Virus record (IMG/VR): IMGVR_UViG_3300025735_000009
Location: 1-64,000 of that record
Origin: a virus
Lineage: Duplodnaviria; Caudoviricetes
DNA: 64,000 nucleotides
Direction: 5' to 3' (one strand)
Under the pieces are notes generated by a model, which was given only the letters and a program-made list of their open reading frames with translations, made no database searches and was not told the DNA's origin. The stretch's first letter is position 1. Every line of letters starts with the position of its first letter. Below are positions 3,752-62,104 of the stretch, piece by piece. Position numbers and translations under genes: made by a program.

Positions 3752-4156
3752 TCACAGTTCGCTGGATGCGGGCGCTACGGTTGCGGGCAAGAAGCGAGCA
3801 ACCAGGGGCATGAGGATGCGGATAGAGCTGATGGTGTGGAGGTAGGTGGGGGCGCCAGCCATGCGCCCCAGCAACCACAGCCAGGCGGCGACCAGGCGAC
3901 CGTCCGGAGGCTGGGTAGCCTCAATCTCGCCGGCAAACTCGTCTACCTGAGCCTTGGCACGCACGTATACGCGCGTTCTTTCACAGGCCTGGGCGATGGC
4001 CCGGATCTTGTCGCTTTGCGCCAGCAGGGCGGCGGTCAGCACCTCATGGCTCACGTCATCGGGCAGGTCCAGGCTTTCAATGGCGTCGAACAGCTCGCCT
4101 ACCTGGTCCTCAATGGCTGGCGCTTGGGCCGGCGCAGTGTTGGGTTGGTCTTGCAT
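3752..4156 (-). CDS. hypothetical protein
   Basis: MQDQPN start directly after the AGCCAGATA leader motif. Confidence 0.6.
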   Translation of the reverse strand: MQDQPNTAPAQAPAIEDQVGELFDAIESLDLPDDVSHEVLTAALLAQSDKIRAIAQACERTRVYVRAKAQVDEFAGEIEATQPPDGRLVAAWLWLLGRMAGAPTYLHTISSIRILMPLVARFLPATVAPASSEL

Positions 4157-4190
4157 TATCTGGCTTCCATCTTGTGTAGGTGGTACCGAC

Positions 4191-4211
4191 AAAGCCCGCA
4201 TAGGCGGGCTT
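4191..4211 (-). terminator. putative intrinsic terminator
   Basis: AAAGCCCGC-ATAG-GCGGGCTT hairpin. Confidence 0.55.
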
Positions 4212-4217
4212 GTGTGG

Positions 4218-4334
4218 TCATTTCCAGTAGCGCAGGGTCAGGCCTATCGTGACGTAGCGGTAACCCCGCTCGGCAACTTCGGCCTTGAACTGGAGCAGCT
4301 CGAACGGGGTGGAGCAGTCGAGGGTGTAGGTCAT
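4218..4334 (-). CDS. small hypothetical protein (38 aa)
   Basis: MTYTLDCSTPFELLQFKAEVAERGYRYVTIGLTLRYWK; preceded by the AATCAGCCAG motif; fills an intergenic gap. Confidence 0.4.
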   Translation of the reverse strand: MTYTLDCSTPFELLQFKAEVAERGYRYVTIGLTLRYWK

Positions 4335-4401
4335 GGTCTAGTGCTGGCTGATTTCGGTACCGGCAAAGCCCCAGTCAAGGGGCTTATTGGGCGATTTCTG
4401 A

Positions 4402-4830
4402 TTACTTGGCCCTGTCCTCGTATGCACGGCTGCGGGGCTCGTGAAGCTCGGCCTGCTTGCGTTTGATAGCGTTGTCGTAGCCGGCGCCAGCGTTCCTTTT
4501 CAGGCAGTTGGCGAAGTGCTCGCGCTCTTGGGCCAGGGTGCCTTCGGCCATCCTGATGCAGACGGCATGGGCCTCTTCGTCGGTCATGTCGGCCATGGTG
4601 CAGGCGCTATGCTGGGCGGTGCGCTCTTGGCCCTGCCAGGTCAGGGTGTAGTGGGTGTCCGAATTCGGGCGGAAGTTGCAGCCCATCATTTCGCCGCTGT
4701 CGACGGCTTCGAGGGTCATTTGCTTGGCGCCGCAAGACTTGACGATGGCACGACGGAAGTACCAGGTCCCCTTGCTATCCCAGTTGGAAAAATGGATTAC
4801 GGCTTGGCCCTTCTTGAATTCTTTCGACAT
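4402..4830 (-). CDS. hypothetical protein
   Basis: MSKEFKK start with GGAGG upstream. Confidence 0.65.
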   Translation of the reverse strand: MSKEFKKGQAVIHFSNWDSKGTWYFRRAIVKSCGAKQMTLEAVDSGEMMGCNFRPNSDTHYTLTWQGQERTAQHSACTMADMTDEEAHAVCIRMAEGTLAQEREHFANCLKRNAGAGYDNAIKRKQAELHEPRSRAYEDRAK

Positions 4831-4929
4831 CGTCCTGCCCTCCAAGGCGCTGATTACTTATGAACCAATTTTAGACGCCCTAGATTACATAATCAATAGA
4901 TTCAGTAGTCTTAATTGTCTTTTGGCGTA

Positions 4930-5418
4930 TCAAATGCCAGCCCTGGCGACATATTGGGACGATTGTGTAATCCACGCCGCCTGCCGGCCGCCTGCAGGAG
5001 GAAGACAAGGGCGCTCGATGTGGCGCGTCGAGGCGTCGGCCAGGCGCAGCTGAGCATTGCGCTCACACGCCATCTTGAACGGGCGCACGTCCTGGCGCCG
5101 GGAGAGGGAGAACACACCCGCGGCTGTGCGCACCTCCCGCTGATAGCCCTCGCCCACGACCGCCAGCACCCTGACCTCCATCACCAGCACGTCACGGCTG
5201 GCGCGAAGCACGCCTGGCAGCCCCGCTTCGATGGCTTTGAGGGTGACCCGCTGCCCTTCCGGGCGATCGCCGTCCGGGCCGTGGTGGAAAGTCAGTAGGA
5301 GGCGCTCGACGCCGCTGGGCAGCACCCCCATGACGAACTTGTTATCTGCGCGGAAGGCCACAAAGGCGGTGGCGTCGACAACCTGGTTGTGTGGGCGTGC
5401 GTAGCAGTTGAATTGCAT
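4930..5418 (-). CDS. hypothetical protein
   Basis: 162 aa ORF downstream of an operator copy at 5471. Confidence 0.6.
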   Translation of the reverse strand: MQFNCYARPHNQVVDATAFVAFRADNKFVMGVLPSGVERLLLTFHHGPDGDRPEGQRVTLKAIEAGLPGVLRASRDVLVMEVRVLAVVGEGYQREVRTAAGVFSLSRRQDVRPFKMACERNAQLRLADASTRHIERPCLPPAGGRQAAWITQSSQYVARAGI

Positions 5419-5470
5419 GACTCGATCCCTGACATGACTGCGGAAAAGGGCAATTTGCCATGAAAAAAAC

Positions 5471-5481
5471 TATCCGCGTAC
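5471..5481 (-). promoter_or_regulatory. operator-like motif GTACGCGGATA (copy 1 of 7)
   Basis: Exact 11-mer also at 13120, 13182, 21557, 34362, 34956, 34978. Confidence 0.8.
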
Positions 5482-5532
5482 ATGATTCGGACGAAAAACC
5501 ATGCTTTTTGGCTGCGAATCAGTGCCTTGCCG

Positions 5533-6252
5533 TCATTGCGTGTGTGCTTTAGGGGGCACTTGAACGGGTGCCCTGCCCACACATTCGCTACCTGGTACCG
5601 GTGTCACGGTCACACCGTCCAGGAACGCCATCGCAACGGTGTCCCATAGGTCAGGCGGCCCTGCAGGTTGGGCGCACATTTGGGCGTAGGGTGGGATGCG
5701 ATACAGGCCGTTCTCATCGAATGAATAGGGCAGCGCCCGTCCCTGCCTGCTGATGGCGTCCCCCATCGCACTGCAGAGCCGCACAGCGCCATCCCTGATA
5801 GCCTCAGCAGCCTCGACGTAGGCCTGCGCTCGAGGCGTGTGGTAGCGCTTGGCATGGCGGATCACGCCACCGAACTGCACGCCACGCACGCGCAGCCCCG
5901 GCGCCAGCTCCTGCAGCTGCTTGAGGAAGTGAATACCAATGCCGCTGGTGTCGATTGCTACGGTGACGTTGGGCAGGTCCATGGCGTAGTCGATCACCTG
6001 GTGTATCAGCCCCCGCAGGTTTTCGCTGTCCGAGAATACGGGCACGCCCACCTTTTCCACGCGGCGCCGATCGGGGTGCGTCCGGTTGCCCTCGCCAGCA
6101 ACGAGCAAGTGCGTGGCCACCGTGCAATAGCGCCCCACCCCTGCAGCTACCACCACAGTGAGCATATGCCCCCACCGCTCGTCATGGCGGATCACTGGCG
6201 GGCCGTCGATGGCCTTTTCGATCTCTTCGCGGGTCAGCAGGTACTTGTTCAT
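5533..6252 (-). CDS. degenerate paralog of the terminase C-terminal nuclease domain
   Basis: Aligns by eye with the C-terminal half of the adjacent TerL (KYLxxR, VAAGVGR, TVATH, PDRRRVE, PDxxDTV); VDVAAG changed to VVVAAG and RDKT to RYCT. Confidence 0.85.
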   Translation of the reverse strand: MNKYLLTREEIEKAIDGPPVIRHDERWGHMLTVVVAAGVGRYCTVATHLLVAGEGNRTHPDRRRVEKVGVPVFSDSENLRGLIHQVIDYAMDLPNVTVAIDTSGIGIHFLKQLQELAPGLRVRGVQFGGVIRHAKRYHTPRAQAYVEAAEAIRDGAVRLCSAMGDAISRQGRALPYSFDENGLYRIPPYAQMCAQPAGPPDLWDTVAMAFLDGVTVTPVPGSECVGRAPVQVPPKAHTQ

Positions 6253-6299
6253 GTGTCAGCTCTCAGTGGTAGGCGCCAGCACGGCGCGGGGTGTTGTTG

Positions 6300-7856
6300 T
6301 CAGTCCAGGTCGGCCAGCTCTTCCATGGCCTTCTCAAGGGCTTGCTCGCGCTTGTCCTGTACCAGCGACTCGCTTTCGGCGCGCGCCGGCACGTAGTCCA
6401 CGCTTTCCAGGAAGACCATACAGACGGTGTCGAAGTAGTCGGGCGACGGCAGGTTCTCGGACGCCATGTCCTGCTTACGGGCAATGTGGTACCGCCCGAG
6501 CTCGTCCAGGTGGTACGGCATACGGCTGGCCTGGTCGAGCAGGTCCTTTTTGTATTTGCTGGTGAAGCGAATGGCGCCATCTTTGATGGCCTCGATCGCG
6601 TGCACGGTGGATTGGGCGCGCTGGTTGAGGAAGCGCTTGCGGTATTCGTTGGAGAACGGCAGTTCGCCCCAGCGCACGCCCTTGCAGTGGATACCGCCCT
6701 GGCCAAGCTCCTGCAGGCGCTTGAGGAACTGGTTACCCATGGCGTTGGTGTCGACGACGATCGTGACGTTGCTGAACTGTGCGGCGTAGTCCAGCACCTT
6801 GCGCGCCACCGGCGTCCAATCCTCGGTGCTGGTGTAGACCGGCACGTCGACCACTTCCACGCGGCGCCGATCGGGCGACATGCGATCGCCGTTACCGATG
6901 ACCTTGAAGTGGGTGGCCACCGTCTTATCTCGACCCACACCGGCCGCCACGTCGACGACAATGACGTGACCGTATGCCTCGCCGTCCAGGATGACCCGCG
7001 GGCCTTCAATGACGCGCTCGACCGCCACACGGCTGACCAGGTACTTGCTGGAGTTGGTCGGGAACATGCCCCGGACCTTGATCTGGTACTCAGGCTCATC
7101 ACGCCCGCCGTACTGGATGATCTTGGCCTTGATGAATGGCAGGTCGACCAGCGGGCTGTCTTCGGAGTTGAAGGTAAGCGCCGTCCACTCGCCGCCCTGC
7201 GCCTTGCTCAGGTTGTGGTGCGTGTCCCGGAAGAAACCGCTATCACGGGTAGGCTGTGACGCCATGATGAAGCGGTTACGCTTGTCGGTCAGTGCGCCAC
7301 CGATCACGCCAAAGTTTGCGTCCGGGATACCAGACGCCTCGTCCGCCATCCATAGCAGGTAGCGTTCGTGGGTACCGGCCAAGTTCTCAGGCGAGCCACG
7401 GGGCGCGGTGCGGGTGGTGATGAACCAGGTAGCCGAACGGGTCTTGATGTAGACCTTCTCGGCTTGAATCTCGATGTACTCAGCAACCCACGCGTGCGGG
7501 CCTTTCTTGATCTCCGCCAGCAGGTTGGTCATTTCCTTCCATACACCCTCTCGCACCGTCTTGAGCTTGGGCGCGGTTATGTAGGTGTTGGAATTGGGAT
7601 AGCACAGCATGTGCCAGAAGCCGATCACGCCAAACGAGCGCGTCTTGCCGGTACCGTGGCCAGACGCCACCGACACACGGGCGCCGAACACGCTGGTTTC
7701 GTCAAACAGGTCTTTCTGCTGGTGCGTGACGTCCATACCACACACCTCGACCGCAAAGGCGTAGATATCGGCGGCGTAACGCTCCATGAATTCCGGGTAG
7801 CGCGCATCAGCGTCAATGGCTGCCCGCTCTACCTTCTGTTTTGACGATCTGGCCAT
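6300..7856 (-). CDS. terL: terminase large subunit (P1 PacB-like)
   Basis: Walker A SGHGTGKT, Walker B WMADEAS, RNase H-like nuclease VDVAAG...PDYFD. Confidence 0.92.
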   Translation of the reverse strand: MARSSKQKVERAAIDADARYPEFMERYAADIYAFAVEVCGMDVTHQQKDLFDETSVFGARVSVASGHGTGKTRSFGVIGFWHMLCYPNSNTYITAPKLKTVREGVWKEMTNLLAEIKKGPHAWVAEYIEIQAEKVYIKTRSATWFITTRTAPRGSPENLAGTHERYLLWMADEASGIPDANFGVIGGALTDKRNRFIMASQPTRDSGFFRDTHHNLSKAQGGEWTALTFNSEDSPLVDLPFIKAKIIQYGGRDEPEYQIKVRGMFPTNSSKYLVSRVAVERVIEGPRVILDGEAYGHVIVVDVAAGVGRDKTVATHFKVIGNGDRMSPDRRRVEVVDVPVYTSTEDWTPVARKVLDYAAQFSNVTIVVDTNAMGNQFLKRLQELGQGGIHCKGVRWGELPFSNEYRKRFLNQRAQSTVHAIEAIKDGAIRFTSKYKKDLLDQASRMPYHLDELGRYHIARKQDMASENLPSPDYFDTVCMVFLESVDYVPARAESESLVQDKREQALEKAMEELADLD

Positions 7857-7899
7857 GCCATCCCTTACCGCCCCCTGGCGGGGGATTACTCAGCGCCCC

Positions 7900-7940
7900 A
7901 CTGTACGGGGCGCCTGGATAGCGTTTAGCGCGGGGTTTGC
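7900..7940 (-). promoter_or_regulatory. putative late promoter for terL
   Basis: GCAAACCCC (7940-7932), 26 nt, TACAGT (7905-7900). Confidence 0.7.
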
Positions 7941-8707
7941 GCCACTGGGGCGCTCTGCACCAGGGTCGCCAGAAGAGCGGCCTGATGGCTTGATAGGGGC
8001 TTGCCGGCTACCAGCTCGACGAAGTGGCGCATATCGTCCTGGTGGCGAGCTCGCTGCTCGGCGTAGGTGGGTGCTTGCGACTGCTCGAGGTCGACAAGCG
8101 GATACCCATGCCCCCTGATCCAGTTCATGGTGAACTCTGGAACATGCCAGTCATGGGCGATGACCAGGGCATTGCCCTCGTAGACCATGGTGCTGCCGAT
8201 TACCCCCAGGCAGGTGGCTGGCAACTTCTCGCCGCCTTCCACGAGCCACAGCAGGCGCTGGGCGTACTCTCCGGCCAATGCCTCGGGATACCTGGCCGAC
8301 GCCTTGCGCATCTTGATAGCGCTGCCAAGGCGCCCCTCCACGGCCCATCCGGTAGCGCGGTGCTTGATGCCACGCGCCAGCCAGTAGAAGCGGCCGGTCC
8401 TGATGTGCTTGTGCAGCTGTGCAATGGCGCGGTTTGTTTCGCTGGCGCTGTCCGCGGGCGATGACAGCATTGTGAGCGAGTCCGGTGTGGTGGTGATGTG
8501 CCACAGCGCCAGCACCGCCAGCACCACGCCCTGTTGCTCCTGGCTGCCGGCGTTATGCAGCATCAGCCTGGAGGCATCCAGATGCGGGAGTGCGCCCAGC
8601 AGTTGGTCAGGGATCGCTACGCCACACACGTCGACGGCAAAGGCGTGCGGGTCACAGGCATAGCGCTCGGCAAAGGCTGGCCAGCGAAGATCGGCGTAAA
8701 GAGTCAT
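7925..8707 (-). CDS. degenerate paralog of the terminase N-terminal ATPase domain
   Basis: RWPAFAERYACDPHAFAVDVCG matches TerL RYPEFMERYAADIYAFAVEVCG; PEALAGEYAQRLLW matches PENLAGTHERYLLW; Walker A and B not conserved. Confidence 0.85.
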   Translation of the reverse strand: MTLYADLRWPAFAERYACDPHAFAVDVCGVAIPDQLLGALPHLDASRLMLHNAGSQEQQGVVLAVLALWHITTTPDSLTMLSSPADSASETNRAIAQLHKHIRTGRFYWLARGIKHRATGWAVEGRLGSAIKMRKASARYPEALAGEYAQRLLWLVEGGEKLPATCLGVIGSTMVYEGNALVIAHDWHVPEFTMNWIRGHGYPLVDLEQSQAPTYAEQRARHQDDMRHFVELVAGKPLSSHQAALLATLVQSAPVAQTPR

Positions 8708-9291
8708 TCCTGGCTTCCTTGTGCGTGGTGGCGCTCACGATCGGCGATCAGCAGCGCCACGGCCTTGTTGATGGATTCACTGGCGTCACAGCGTTTCATG
8801 GGATGGGCAGGCCATGGCCAGAAGCGCTGATAGGCGAATGGCTGAATGCCGGCCGCCTGGAACACGTAGCAGCCCGCAGCGCGGATCAGCTCGCCCCCGG
8901 TGTACTGCTGGTCCCAGTCCTGGCTGTAGCCCTCGCCTTCCTGCTGGCGCAGGCGCTCCATCACCATGGCCATGGCCACAGGGGAGACGGCTGGCACGTT
9001 GAGGAAGAGCGGCATAGGTGGCTGCCAGCCCTTGCGGGCTTTCTCATCCCAGCCGGTAGAGCCAGGGCCAGGCGGACGGGTGTAACTCAGCCCGTGGGGC
9101 TTGTTGGCGCGGCGGGTGGCCCATATCACCGGAGTGGCGCCAGCGTCACCCAGCGGCTTGGCAGCGCTTAGCCATACCTGGTAGGTGGCCTGGGTGCCGG
9201 GATCGACATAACCGTCGCCGGCGCGCTCGAGGGCGGTGATACCCGCCTCGGCGCAGGCGTGTTCAAAGTCGGCGCGCTCCAGGAACATCAT
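8704..9291 (-). CDS. phage protein with conserved ER.RQ...EG...GEL..AA.CY...WPW module
   Basis: C-terminal module common in phage accessory genes; ATGA overlaps. Confidence 0.7.
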   Translation of the reverse strand: MMFLERADFEHACAEAGITALERAGDGYVDPGTQATYQVWLSAAKPLGDAGATPVIWATRRANKPHGLSYTRPPGPGSTGWDEKARKGWQPPMPLFLNVPAVSPVAMAMVMERLRQQEGEGYSQDWDQQYTGGELIRAAGCYVFQAAGIQPFAYQRFWPWPAHPMKRCDASESINKAVALLIADRERHHAQGSQE

Positions 9292-9512
9292 GCGGCACCT
9301 GCCAGGGGCGATGCCTCGATGATCTCCCAGCGCTCGGCGGGCAGGTGCTGGCGCTCTACACGCTGCACCGATCCGGCCGGGCAACGCACATACAACGTCT
9401 CGCCTATCTCCAGCTCCACGCGCATGCGCTCATTGGTTTTAAGGTCGACCACCGCAATCGATGGGCGGGTGCGGGTGCTGCCTGCATTGGTCAAAGCGGG
9501 GTTGTTGTACAT
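9288..9512 (-). CDS. hypothetical protein
   Basis: MYNNP start; stop overlaps next start. Confidence 0.5.
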   Translation of the reverse strand: MYNNPALTNAGSTRTRPSIAVVDLKTNERMRVELEIGETLYVRCPAGSVQRVERQHLPAERWEIIEASPLAGAA

Positions 9513-9700
9513 GGTCACAGCATCTTCAAAGGTAATTGAGCCCGGGCGCATTCGTTGAAACCGTGTGGAAGGGCCTTCCCGGCCCTCTCACAGTTGCGGC
9601 GCCCGCAGTCTTGGCAGTAGGTGTAAGCGGTAGGTCGGCCCTGGTGGCGCCACACCACACGCGCACCGTCGCAATAACGGCACTGCATGCGGGGTGCTCC

Positions 9701-10480
9701 CTATTTATCCGCGTCCTGGGGGTTGCGCTTGCTCATCATCAAATCCGCGTAGGCCCACCGGCGATCAGCGTAGGTGGCCAGGTCTTCGCCCTCGAGCATG
9801 GGCAGCGGGCAATGAATGGCGAAGTCATCGCGCAGGTCTTCCAGGTGCTGCAGGTCAGCCGCTGGCGCCGGGTAGATCTTGATACCGCCTTTCAGCATCC
9901 GCTCACGCAGCTCAGGCGATACCAGGAAGTGCGGGCCGGCGTTCTTGCACTCGGCGTCGACACGCTTCAAGAGCTCGCCGAACTCCGACCACTGGCGGCT
10001 ACGCTCGGCAGCCTCGCGCGATCCAGAGCTTTCTCCAGGGACGCAAAGCGTGCCATTGAGCGTGCCGCACACTGGGGTGAAGCTCGCCGCCTCGGACAAG
10101 CCAGCACAATCAGTGTTAGCGGTAGGCGCTGGCGCAGGATCAGCTACCGCGGCCGCCACGCGCTGCGCCAGGTCGTTGTCCAGGTCCAGCTGGTGAGCCT
10201 CGCGCATACGCTTGGCCAGGCCCAGCGAGCGGGTCAGCGGGGACTTGAGGAAGTCCTCGATGACGGGGCGCAGGCCGATCGGCGTCTTGACGGTACCGCC
10301 GGCGCCTTTCTGCACCACCGCCCAGCCGGCGGACGTGCCTACGAACAGCAGCTGGGCGTTGCCGTTACCCTTACGGGTCTTGCACTTGTGGCCGACCAGG
10401 TATTGGCGAAACGGCTCTACCTGCTCGAGCTTGAGCAGATCGGTGTCGTTGATTTTCAGCATGTCTACCGCTTGGTTCAT
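9701..10480 (-). CDS. hypothetical protein
   Basis: MNQAVD start at ATGA overlap with the upstream HTH gene. Confidence 0.65.
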   Translation of the reverse strand: MNQAVDMLKINDTDLLKLEQVEPFRQYLVGHKCKTRKGNGNAQLLFVGTSAGWAVVQKGAGGTVKTPIGLRPVIEDFLKSPLTRSLGLAKRMREAHQLDLDNDLAQRVAAAVADPAPAPTANTDCAGLSEAASFTPVCGTLNGTLCVPGESSGSREAAERSRQWSEFGELLKRVDAECKNAGPHFLVSPELRERMLKGGIKIYPAPAADLQHLEDLRDDFAIHCPLPMLEGEDLATYADRRWAYADLMMSKRNPQDADK

Positions 10481-10788
10481 TGCCCTTGCTCCTGCAGTTG
10501 TCTCGAGGTGTACGGTTTCAGGTTCTCGGCCCGGCCGCGGCGGCGGGTCGGTTTGGATTCGGTAGCGAGCGCCAGGGGCCTTACCCACAGCTGCCCAGTT
10601 TTGAACTGGAACAGCTCCCACAGGCCTAGCTTGATTTCAGCCTCGCCCTTCTCGTAGCTCTGCCAGGAACGGCGGCTGACGTGGATCAGGGCGGCACTGG
10701 CGCGCTGGCTCAGGCCGGCACGCTTACGAGACGCGCGGACCTGCGCAGCGTCGGGTATCAGGTCGGCGATGGATGCAATAGCGGTCAT
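10477..10788 (-). CDS. XRE-family HTH transcriptional regulator
   Basis: VRASRKRAGLSQRASAALIHVSRRSWQSYEKG. Confidence 0.85.
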   Translation of the reverse strand: MTAIASIADLIPDAAQVRASRKRAGLSQRASAALIHVSRRSWQSYEKGEAEIKLGLWELFQFKTGQLWVRPLALATESKPTRRRGRAENLKPYTSRQLQEQGQ

Positions 10789-11867
10789 CCCAATTTTCCT
10801 TCCTCAATCATGCGCAGGCGCTCCTGCATTTCCGCGCGTTGGCGCTCTGTCTTCTCGTGGGCGCGCGCAATGCGTTCGTCCAGCTCTTCGGTGCTCGGCC
10901 CGGCCTGTACGACAACGGCGGGTTCGACGTGTAGGTCGAAGATCTTGCCCAGCAGCTCGCGGTAGGCCTTCTGGGAGCCCGCGTGCACTTTGAGGCCGTC
11001 TTTCGTCTTCTCGACGCCCTCATACAGCGCCAATGCGGCTGGGCTGTAGGAGCGAGAGTCATGGAAGTAGAGGTACTGGTAGCCCTCGCCTGCGCACTCC
11101 GGGCAGTCCGGGTGGGGCGGAAGGCGCTTGTCATAGCCCAGGCCGCCCAGTTCATCGAAGGGGGGCAGGGTTTTGTTGTTGTTCTTCGCATCCGCCAGGG
11201 CGGCTTCGTACTCGGCCAGGCGGTCTTCCATTTCCCGGGGAGTGTGCTGGTACCGGTGGTCGATACCGTGGCAGTAGTGGCAGCAGGCGCGGCGCAGCTC
11301 GGAGATTTCCCGGGCATCAGCGAAGGCCGCGGCATGGATCACACCGATAACGGCGTTCTGCACGTCGGCGGTGCGCTTGAACATTTCGGCCTGGCGGGCG
11401 GCATAGTACGGATGGCTCTTAACCTTCTTTAACAGCCTGCTGGCCCCTGCAGCGGCCACCGCGTCGCTCTTGGCGGAATAGCCCGCATCACGGTACGACT
11501 GGGTGGCGTTGTAGGTGGCCAGGTACAGGTCCACGAACTTGGCCATCTTCGGGCTCAAGCCGTGCAACTCCGCAAGCGCTAAGGCCTCCAGCTCTTTTTC
11601 AGAGAGCGGGATCGGGTTTTTGATCTTGGTGGTGCCCTGCTTGCCAGGCGTGGTGCTGGCGGGCTCGGCCGCGGCTTTGGCGGTCTTTTTGGGGGCAGAA
11701 TTCTTTGCCGTTGCGGGGGCTTTCCCGGCACCCTTTCCGGCAGCCTTTCCCTTGTTAACCTTAACAGCCGACGCGGTGCGGGGTGACCGAGCACCGGGCT
11801 TACCCGATGACGCGGATAGTTGATCCTCACCCATGTCAGGTTTGTCGGTTTTAGGGTTACGTGGCAT
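10785..11867 (-). CDS. terS: terminase small subunit
   Basis: LSPKMAKFVDLYLATYNATQSYRDAGYS HTH typical of phage TerS, plus CCHYC...CPEC module; start MPRNPK with GAGG. Confidence 0.85.
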   Translation of the reverse strand: MPRNPKTDKPDMGEDQLSASSGKPGARSPRTASAVKVNKGKAAGKGAGKAPATAKNSAPKKTAKAAAEPASTTPGKQGTTKIKNPIPLSEKELEALALAELHGLSPKMAKFVDLYLATYNATQSYRDAGYSAKSDAVAAAGASRLLKKVKSHPYYAARQAEMFKRTADVQNAVIGVIHAAAFADAREISELRRACCHYCHGIDHRYQHTPREMEDRLAEYEAALADAKNNNKTLPPFDELGGLGYDKRLPPHPDCPECAGEGYQYLYFHDSRSYSPAALALYEGVEKTKDGLKVHAGSQKAYRELLGKIFDLHVEPAVVVQAGPSTEELDERIARAHEKTERQRAEMQERLRMIEEGKLG

Positions 11868-11942
11868 GGCTACCTCAAGCGCACTTTCTGCATTGCTGAA
11901 CGTGGTACAGGGGCCAACTTCCTGCGCCTCCTGCACGTTTGT

Positions 11943-11964
11943 AAAAAAGCCCGCGTGTGCGGGC
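11943..11964 (-). terminator. intrinsic terminator closing the candidate ncRNA
   Basis: GCCCGC-ACAC-GCGGGC followed by TTTTTT on - strand. Confidence 0.8.
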
Positions 11965-12290
11965 CCTTTCACTTCCTTCCTTGCCGCTACGCTGCAGGCT
12001 GGTACCTACAGCGGTTTCCAGAACCGGGCACGCCTCTGGTCAGGCGCGCATTGAGGAGCAACCCTCTGCCCTTCGCGGTTATCCATGCCATTGGTGTTTA
12101 GGGCCGGTCCTGCACCCCATCACACGCCCTCTTTCCCGGGCATGCGGCTCTGCCGGCAAACAACTCCAGCAGGCCACCAACAACGAGCGACCACGCAACG
12201 CACCCATTCGGTGGGTCAGTCCTTCCCTCGGCAGCAGAACATCAGGTACAGCGCTCACACAGGTTGCAGCGGGGGTGCCTTATGCCAGGT
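11943..12290 (-). ncRNA. candidate large structured non-coding RNA (family unknown; 5' end approximate)
   Basis: No credible ORF; at least 7 helices, many with G-U pairs only on - strand; long-range closing helices; terminator at 3' end. Confidence 0.6.
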
Positions 12291-12379
12291 CCGTAGACAC
12301 GTCCCATAAGGGCGCTGGCGGCCCCTCCCACTGCATAAAACAGCGCTCTCTAACCCCAAAACGCTCTTTTATGCGGTGG

Positions 12380-13081
12380 TCACAGGAACAGCAGTTGCTG
12401 GACCCGCTCTTTGATCTCCACCGGGTTAACGGCAACCGGCTCCACTTCGTCGTGCGCCAGCTTCTCGCGCTTCACCCGTTCGCAGTGTTCTTTCATGGTC
12501 ACATGCAATTCGCTCATCAAACGGAGCACCTTTGCGCCGTTTTTAATGTCGTCGTAGCCTGGATCGCGGCGGGCGATCTCCAGTGCATTGCCCAGGTTCT
12601 CGACCATGGTGGCCACCTGGCCCAGCAGCTCGCGATCGGCGCTGAAACCCTCGATCATGATTGCGCTCTGGCGCGCCATGGCGTTGACCATGCTATGGAA
12701 CTGGCTACCGACGGCCTCAGCCATCACGCCCACCAACACAGCCTGGTTACCCTCTTCTGGTGCGCGGGTAATGTCGTCGTGCACGCCCATCAGGTAGTCG
12801 ACGGTCACGCAGTAGAGCTTCGCCAGCAGTTTCAGGTTGTTGAGGCTCGGCGCCCGGTGGCCGTTCTCGAACAGGCTGATCTGGGTAACGCCCTTATGCG
12901 CCAGCGCCAGCCCGGCAGCGCTCTCGGAAAAACCGGCCAGCTTGCGGGCTTTGCGCAGGCGCGGGCCTACGATCGCCATCAGTTCAGCCTCAGCCTGGCG
13001 CGCCTGGTCGGACGGGCTGGCGCCAGCGCCCAAATCCTCGCTTTCGTCAAAAAGAGGTGCGACCGGGTCAAAAACCCCCAT
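12380..13081 (-). CDS. XRE-family HTH regulator with extended C-terminus
   Basis: RLRKARKLAGFSESAAGLALAHKGVTQISLFENGHRAPSLNNL; start moved to MGVF because the longer start lies inside an operator copy. Confidence 0.85.
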   Translation of the reverse strand: MGVFDPVAPLFDESEDLGAGASPSDQARQAEAELMAIVGPRLRKARKLAGFSESAAGLALAHKGVTQISLFENGHRAPSLNNLKLLAKLYCVTVDYLMGVHDDITRAPEEGNQAVLVGVMAEAVGSQFHSMVNAMARQSAIMIEGFSADRELLGQVATMVENLGNALEIARRDPGYDDIKNGAKVLRLMSELHVTMKEHCERVKREKLAHDEVEPVAVNPVEIKERVQQLLFL

Positions 13082-44519: not shown

Positions 44520-44522
44520 GCG

Positions 44523-62088: not shown

Positions 62089-62104
62089 GCCGATCTGCGG
62101 GCAC

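Follow-up and report, generated by a model that had tools for sequence, protein, structure and literature searches.

Why would a phage keep, directly upstream of the gene for its large terminase (terL), an intact second copy of the terminase ATPase domain from which the catalytic motifs have gone, and what might such a protein do? The question is raised by a 64,000-nucleotide stretch of viral DNA (positions 1 to 64,000 of the 77.6-kb IMG/VR record IMGVR_UViG_3300025735_000009; the whole stretch is called the window here), in which a 260-amino-acid (aa) open reading frame (ORF), designated N', precedes terL. The minus strand carries all of the genes discussed here. The window TerL is of the P1 PacB type, and circular, plasmid-sized replicons are found among the close relatives, e.g., pKF715C of Pseudomonas putida KF715 (94.7 kb); therefore, the source element is a P1-like phage-plasmid of Pseudomonas. 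Sequence comparison identifies N' as a selectively maintained, noncatalytic paralog of the ATPase domain in the P1 PacB-type TerL that this phage encodes. N' probably works by binding terminase partners and not by catalysis, and the explanation that we favor, at a probability of roughly 0.45, is that N' is an accessory TerL mimic that engages the small terminase (TerS), or else the inter-subunit face of TerL, and so modulates or protects assembly of the holoenzyme.

A stand-alone pseudo-ATPase and its family

The two proteins compared, and the segments of N' that carry the comparison, are as follows.

7925-8707, minus strand: N', predicted 260-aa stand-alone pseudo-ATPase, paralog of the TerL ATPase domain (ATG start, TAA stop).
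6300-7856, minus strand: TerL, active large terminase of the P1 PacB type, 518 aa (phrog_2, terminase large subunit).
8531-8557, minus strand: degenerate Walker A, HNAGSQEQQ, N' residues 51-59, without GK[ST] (TerL counterpart, SGHGTGKT).
8228-8254, minus strand: degenerate Walker B, LLWLVEGGE, N' residues 152-160 (TerL counterpart, LLWMADEAS).
8609-8707, minus strand: N-terminal helical motif, N' residues 1-33 (DLRWPAFAERYAxDxxAFAVDVCG), the best-conserved segment between N' and TerL.
7928-8095, minus strand: C-terminal tail module, N' residues ~205-260, two helices, second copy of the TerL N-terminal motif.

In a BLASTP comparison, residues 5-184 of N' aligned with residues 16-199 of TerL at 29% identity (E = 6e-22), and the same match recurred in a search of the phage's own record. 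An initial annotation of the window had described the 260-aa frame as intact, translationally coupled to the genes upstream of it, alignable with TerL residues ~15-200, and catalytically dead, and these statements were borne out: both Walker motifs are replaced, and the N' start codon (ATG, 8707-8705) overlaps the stop codon of the preceding gene, U (8706-8704), as ATGA, with similar 4-nucleotide (nt) overlaps back to terS. N' is therefore the final gene of a tightly coupled terS operon. The terminase-like fold for which the same annotation had proposed a structural comparison was likewise recovered. An AlphaFold2 model of N', built on 30 family members, had a predicted local distance difference test score (pLDDT) of 90.1 and a predicted template modeling score (pTM) of 0.84, and its best matches in the PDB were only large-terminase ATPase domains (P74-26, D6E, T4 gp17, HK97, Sf6, and PhiV-1; E values of 2e-6 to 6e-4). 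Almost all of the top 50 BFVD entries matched by the model were named terminases, and no other named family was among them. N' is thus modeled as keeping the terminase-type ASCE ATPase fold.

The window TerL, which is 36% identical to P1 PacB and 41% identical to the TerL of Xanthomonas phage Rb1, has its Walker A motif, Walker B motif, and nuclease aspartates all intact, and most full-length TerLs (~500 aa) matched in the profile search described below retain GHGTGK[ST] (GxGxGK[ST]) and hhhhDEA. In alignments of the N' family, the Walker A region varies in both sequence and length, and a motif scan of the profile-search proteins found the P-loop Lys/Thr to be missing from all ~27 N' family clusters. 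At Walker B, the family has Glu in place of Asp and Gly, Asp, or Ala in place of the catalytic Glu, so that its signature is hhW[LI]xE[DGA] versus hhhhDEA in TerLs. Without the P-loop Lys/Thr and the catalytic Glu, N' should, as predicted from these motifs, neither bind ATP in the usual way nor hydrolyze it. The polypeptide consists of the ATPase/lid region and a 45-aa tail and lacks an RNase H-like nuclease domain at its C terminus; it retains the R-x-A...PExLAG loop that precedes the Walker B strand, and its beta-hairpin is 9 residues shorter than that of TerL.

The N-terminal motif is kept family-wide. Its consensus across N' and TerL is D-x-R-[YW]-P-x-F-x-E-R-Y-A-x-D-x-x-A-F-A-x-x-V-C-G, and 9 of the 24 columns invariant across N' and TerL lie within the first 28 residues. 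A profile-profile comparison (hhalign) of tails against the N termini of TerL and N' matched the tail with TerL residues 13-56 (probability, 90%; E = 1.5e-6; 44 columns), and the window N' accordingly carries the TerL N-terminal motif twice. The tail, i.e., the C-terminal ~50 residues, is absent from most family members, including most distant ones, and it occurs as a free 54-aa ORF (P0047) adjoining terL in three relatives (L011, L025, and L026). Because the motif is present as a second copy in the tail of N' and is encoded as a miniprotein in relatives, it appears to function as a unit in its own right, a binding epitope being the simplest possibility.

Ortholog searches covered 5.8 billion proteins, and profile searches covered 1.84 billion cluster representatives. 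The former yielded intact N' orthologs at 70, 53, 50, and 45% identity, each encoded 60 to 85 bp upstream of a 518-aa TerL. The latter yielded 91 proteins, of which ~27 (as clusters at 50% identity) are stand-alone proteins of 196 to 266 aa without any GK[ST]. Every named family member is annotated as a "hypothetical protein," and most come from Pseudomonas or metagenomes. There was no match to N' in 50,697 cultured phage records, IMG/VR close-relative scans with the single N' protein found nothing, and species-representative genomes held no relative of the window N' sub-clade. Searches of Pfam, NCBIfam, and PADLOC gave no match for N', for U, or for two further neighbors described below (X and C'), and in PHROGs, N' had only a weak match, to phrog_5902, an unnamed family that TerL matches as well. 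The N' family is thus a sizeable and previously undescribed one, set apart by their descriptions from T4 vs.8 and Ksap2, the stand-alone TerL-like proteins considered below.

To determine if N' was a decaying duplicate, frameshifts and the ratio of nonsynonymous to synonymous substitution rates (dN/dS; pairwise Nei-Gojobori, with bootstrap 95% intervals) were examined. More than 20 intact homologs were found and none had a frameshift. The dN/dS of N' was 0.25 to 0.35 in the least saturated pairs and 0.25 to 0.5 overall, with bootstrap 95% upper bounds that never exceeded 0.5; the corresponding values were ~0.1 for TerL and 0.18 to 0.37 for terS. Since the homologs are intact and dN/dS is well below 1, N' is judged to be a selectively maintained protein, and the decay that the initial annotation had wanted checked is refuted. 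Moreover, 28 of the 29 dead proteins formed a single clade in a maximum-likelihood tree (support, 95/87), sister to the clade of P1-type TerLs (96/94), which indicates that one old duplication lies behind the main N' clade. The exception, P0037 from a contig of low G+C content, grouped with its own TerL (100/95), to which it is 35% identical, compared with 26% identity to the window N', suggesting either that it arose independently or that gene conversion took place.

Distribution, divergence, and candidate partners

Three genes of the operon that ends in N' are needed here.

10785-11972, minus strand: terS, PacA-like small terminase, first gene of the operon (Pfam Terminase_2, E = 2.7e-15; phrog_51).
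9701-10621, minus strand: X, 306 aa, between terS and N'.
8704-9291, minus strand: U, 195-aa conserved protein of unknown function, in ATGA overlap with N', with orthologs in all operon-bearing relatives.

Distant members of the N' family share the gene order terS-HTH-X-small ORFs-U-N'-TerL (HTH, helix-turn-helix gene), and N' was directly upstream of terL in every locus examined except L016, in which two genes separate them. Among 22 loci recovered from IMG/VR with TerL as the query, 12 have N' directly upstream of terL. Between sub-clades, N' proteins are 30 to 40% identical while the TerLs are 65 to 86% identical, and in the pair L014 and L015, the identities are 55% for terS, 38% for X, 66% for U, 38% for N', and 85% for TerL. 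The genes from terS to N' have thus diverged as a block and far more quickly than TerL, as would fit a role in recognition, on the side of TerS. N' is best classed, on these identities, as an accessory gene whose evolution follows that of the terS operon (the recognition side) and not that of the motor.

Under the favored explanation, the TerL-like surfaces of N', above all the duplicated N-terminal motif, would be presented to a partner that normally contacts TerL. The likeliest partner, which is a guess, would be the small terminase from the same operon. In phage lambda, the N-terminal ~48 residues of the large subunit gpA bind the small subunit gpNu1. Small terminases possess a C-terminal TerL-binding domain and regulate both the ATPase and the nuclease of TerL (PMC7617512). 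TerL itself, contacted via the ATPase inter-subunit face, would be the alternative partner, again as a guess. The result would be that assembly of the terminase holoenzyme is modulated or protected, and the benefit would be conditional, not essential, e.g., control of pac cleavage or protection of terminase subunits against hijackers or the sensors of the host. On the best reading, the idea in the initial annotation of a regulator or dominant-negative factor lies close to this explanation.

Several observations weigh against such a role. Five loci without the N' core (L025, L026, L029, L030, and L035) still hold terS, X, an 87-aa ORF, U, and TerL. Nothing lies between U and terL in three of these (L029, L030, and L035); in the other two, the TerLs are 91 to 92% identical to the window TerL, yet the slot holds only the 54-aa motif ORF. 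Furthermore, the TerLs of L028, which has N', and L029, which does not, are 98% identical, and in a DNA alignment of these two loci, the 3' end of U and the promoter region flank N' as a clean cassette. Since N' is dispensable in phages with near-identical TerLs, it is not a core packaging subunit. In the cultured relatives Rb1, pBVIE05, and P1, terS directly adjoins terL and there is no N'. L008 carries two tandem N' paralogs, both upstream of terL and 40% identical to each other (412-1056, 214 aa, of the P0010 type; 1053-1853, 266 aa). Conflict genes typically show presence/absence polymorphism, tandem duplication, shuffling of domains, and rapid divergence; since N' shares these features, it could in truth be aimed at a factor of the host or of a rival and not at the terminase of its own phage. 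In addition, sequence searches of the PDB with N' and TerL profiles gave no terminase match through which the trans-acting arginine finger of TerL (R139 in P74-26) might be placed on N'.

The terL leader and neighboring genes

Features of the region between N' and terL, and of the slot downstream of terL, are as follows.

7942-7932 (GCGCAAACCCC) or, read as positions 7932-7943, GGCGCAAACCCC, minus strand: upstream element of the terL promoter-like site, in N' codons 255-258 (AQTP).
7893-7913, minus strand: perfect inverted repeat, GCGCCCC-N7-GGGGCGC, whose loop holds TACAGT; unique in the window.
5533-6252, minus strand: C', 239-aa dead copy of the TerL nuclease domain, 44% identical to TerL 270-490.

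Seven copies of the element GCGCAAACCCC are present in the window, all of them on the minus strand, versus 1.1 expected (motif starts at 7942, 14961, 41867, 44521, 48675, 50910, and 57306, with a variant at 62090). Every copy is followed, after a 26-nt spacing, by a -10-like hexamer such as TACAGT, CAGAAT, TAATTT, or TACCAT; that of the terL copy is TACAGT at 7905-7900, from which a transcription start is predicted ~7 nt downstream, near 7893. The motif was found only in the direction of transcription, and the hexamer is TAnnnT-like. Two copies, at 44521 and 50910, also form the 5' arm of a CCCCC...GGGGG-T-run terminator hairpin. A sigma-70 consensus scan of window positions 5300-12400 found no promoter, and the repeated motif is classed here as a putative promoter type other than the sigma-70 consensus. 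The promoter-like stretch is kept in relatives far better than the coding sequence of N', and in L029, which lacks N', the same element lies within the last codons of U. Because it is present at the 3' end of U when N' is absent, the promoter-like element is assigned to terL and not to N'. The claim in the initial annotation that a terL promoter lies in the last codons of N' is thus plausible, given the copy number and the fixed spacing, but only as a property of terL. This element is lacking ahead of terS, and behind the upstream HTH gene stands a terminator-like hairpin; for these reasons the terS-N' operon seems to use a different promoter from terL.

The inverted repeat at 7893-7913 is conserved in seven relatives despite divergent N' coding sequence. 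It is part of a predicted leader fold, with a z-score of only -1.7, and it may be an operator or an RNA/leader hairpin. Directly next to the terL Shine-Dalgarno sequence is a second hairpin, CCCCC-N4-GGGGG, whose loop varies. In the terL leaders of L028 (5190-5230) and L029 (4440-4480), a terminator-like GGGCCG-N6-CGGCCC followed by TTTTT stands between the -10-like hexamer and the Shine-Dalgarno sequence, which hints at control of terL by attenuation or antitermination. Rfam and tRNA scans of window positions 4000-13000 found nothing.

TerL-derived sequence also occurs elsewhere in these loci. C' matches TerL 270-490 with an E value of 2e-58; Val stands in place of its first catalytic Asp in each of the three members known, its dN/dS is 0.27, and only three C' clusters were found. 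Other relatives carry unrelated small genes downstream of terL, and this site is therefore a variable accessory slot; that of L023 holds a 213-aa gene (8336-8977) unrelated to TerL. In the L014/L015 group, an X protein of ~430 aa holds an inserted dead nuclease domain that is 38% identical to TerL 265-501, with the first Asp replaced by Arg and the third by Glu. Such a nuclease-bearing X is found at L014:4151-5443 and L015:643-1938 and also in L036, L037, L042, and L044, and the window X shares only N- and C-terminal modules with this type. N' and the dead nuclease copies have separate histories. The possibility that one terL had been inserted into another was considered and ruled out, since N' and C' differ both in distribution (~27 versus 3 clusters) and in depth; the dead nuclease domain inside X, upstream of N', in other relatives also counters the idea of a split terL.

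Three further observations concern the conserved neighbors. In TerS, a long N-terminal region is rich in Lys, Ala, and Pro, and two conserved cysteine clusters (CCHYCHG and CPECAGEG) suggest that the Terminase_2 domain contains a zinc-binding insertion. The AlphaFold2 model of U is poor (pLDDT, 61), and the C-terminal ~90-aa domain of U (WPWP...KAVALLIADRER) matches the C termini of eight PHROG families of unknown function and very different lengths. The TerLs of L034 (4501-6795) and L035 (4483-6795) are 764 to 770 aa long with an interrupted Walker A motif, and the corresponding gene on the Pseudomonas atacamensis plasmid NZ_CP070504.1 bears the annotation of a Hint-domain homing endonuclease; the P-loop region of these long TerLs may therefore contain an intein.

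Competing explanations and significance

The strongest competitor to terminase binding for the sake of assembly is a shield against host defense, in which N' would dock on the ATP-site face of its own TerL via the ring interface, or cover TerS, and hide the sensed features until the motor assembles. The sensors in question would be Avs1-3 and Upx for TerL and, for TerS, sensors such as Rip1 and TerI. N' is accessory, fast-evolving, and sometimes duplicated, and an independent copy seems to have arisen in a second lineage, all of which would suit such a shield. Avs2 and Avs3 read the ATP site of TerL, and TerL-like activators that are not terminases may themselves be anti-defense proteins, as the authors of that study suggest (PMC13601566). 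N', having no ATP site of its own, would escape sensing. However, N' has no match to known defense or anti-defense families in PADLOC, Pfam, or NCBIfam and sits in the terS operon rather than in an early anti-defense region. Moreover, strong variation in N' beside an almost invariant TerL is unexpected if the main task of N' were to fit TerL. We regard the shield as unlikely, and give about the same limited weight to a broader version in which N', the free 54-aa motif, C', and the nuclease copies in X would all be self-derived terminase mimics that hide TerS or TerL from immunity or satellites. If true, terminase-mimic pseudoenzymes would be a new anti-defense principle that arose at least twice.

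Less likely still is that N' is a weapon between elements, i.e., a dominant-negative poison of the terminases of competing phages or satellites in the same cell. The accessory, fast-evolving signature would suit such a factor as well, and a mimic of the TerL N-terminal motif could tie up the TerS of a rival. Among packaging-interference proteins encoded by satellites and phages, SaPI Ppi, PICI Rpp, and P4 Sid and Psu are small proteins that bind terminase or capsid components and act against the helper phage. Like N' as proposed here, these proteins are accessory and act by binding and not by catalysis; they differ from N' in that they are not TerL homologs and are satellite-encoded, whereas N' is encoded by the phage in its own terS operon. 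Against a weapon, N' is derived from, and most similar to, TerLs of its own clade, so that its own terminase would be expected to be the first target; it is cotranscribed with its own terS, and no rival target is known.

The initial annotation had also proposed that N' is a decoy, made before TerL, that titrates Avs-type sensors by binding them without activating them. This was a poor fit, and we consider it improbable. The terminase-like fold, including similarity to the Avs3-bound PhiV-1 terminase chain, and the placement of N' on a transcript other than that from the terL promoter would agree with a decoy. SeAvs3, however, recognizes active-site residues and bound ATP, and EcAvs2 uses ATP bridging to terminase-bound ATP (PMC13601566), and the features that these sensors read are absent from N', which has no P-loop Lys/Thr and no catalytic Glu. 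For these sensors, binding is activation, and a titrating decoy is therefore hard to reconcile with them; indeed, the TerL-like vs.8 and Ksap2 activate Avs2 on binding. Earlier expression is itself doubtful, as terS is normally a late gene. Finally, the view that N' is a functionless remnant of terL duplication or replacement, kept only for the terL promoter in its 3' end, is largely refuted: dead N- and C-terminal halves do flank terL as a split second terminase would, the promoter element does overlap the last codons, and the gene can be lost, but the frame is intact across dS values of >1 and down to ~25% identity with dN/dS clearly below 1, the family has a conserved motif pattern and a confident fold, the promoter persists without N' in L029, and the differing distributions of N' and C' show that they are not two halves of one recent event.

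A terminase-binding role, which we continue to favor, can be set against known systems. N' has in common with a TerL of the P1 PacB type its homologous sequence, the predicted ASCE terminase ATPase fold, the N-terminal helical motif, and the PExLAG loop; it differs in having no nuclease domain or ATP motifs, a shorter beta-hairpin, and an extra copy of the N-terminal motif and in being optional. In E. coli clamp-loader delta' and F1 alpha, noncatalytic paralogs keep the fold and the partner surfaces and act by contacts with active paralogs. By analogy, N' may be another dead paralog with a kept fold; however, those proteins are obligatory, stoichiometric subunits, whereas N' is optional. The nearest counterparts among phages are T4 vs.8 and Ksap2 (Bas60_220), small, stand-alone, lineage-restricted TerL-ATPase-like proteins of unknown function; vs.8 keeps Walker A and B and is reported to be related to T4 TerL, and both are reported activators of Avs2 (PMC13601566, PMC11564622). 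Compared by description, N' is likewise a small stand-alone phage protein with a TerL-ATPase-like structure, but it lacks the ATP-site motifs, is of P1-type and not T4-type origin, and occupies a fixed slot between the terS operon and terL.

Large terminases are the most conserved phage proteins and a main target of bacterial pattern-recognition immunity, and stand-alone terminase-like proteins such as T4 vs.8 and Ksap2 have only just been noticed. The locus described here defines a sizeable, unannotated family of predicted dead ATPase-domain paralogs in a fixed position beside terL. The copying of a short N-terminal TerL motif, and its deployment alone, points to a discrete interaction epitope of P1-type terminases. 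Moreover, purifying selection together with presence or absence in near-identical phages makes N' a tractable natural experiment, in which matched phage-plasmids with N', with only the 54-aa ORF, or with neither could be compared for packaging fidelity, control of pac cleavage, and sensitivity to terminase-sensing defenses.

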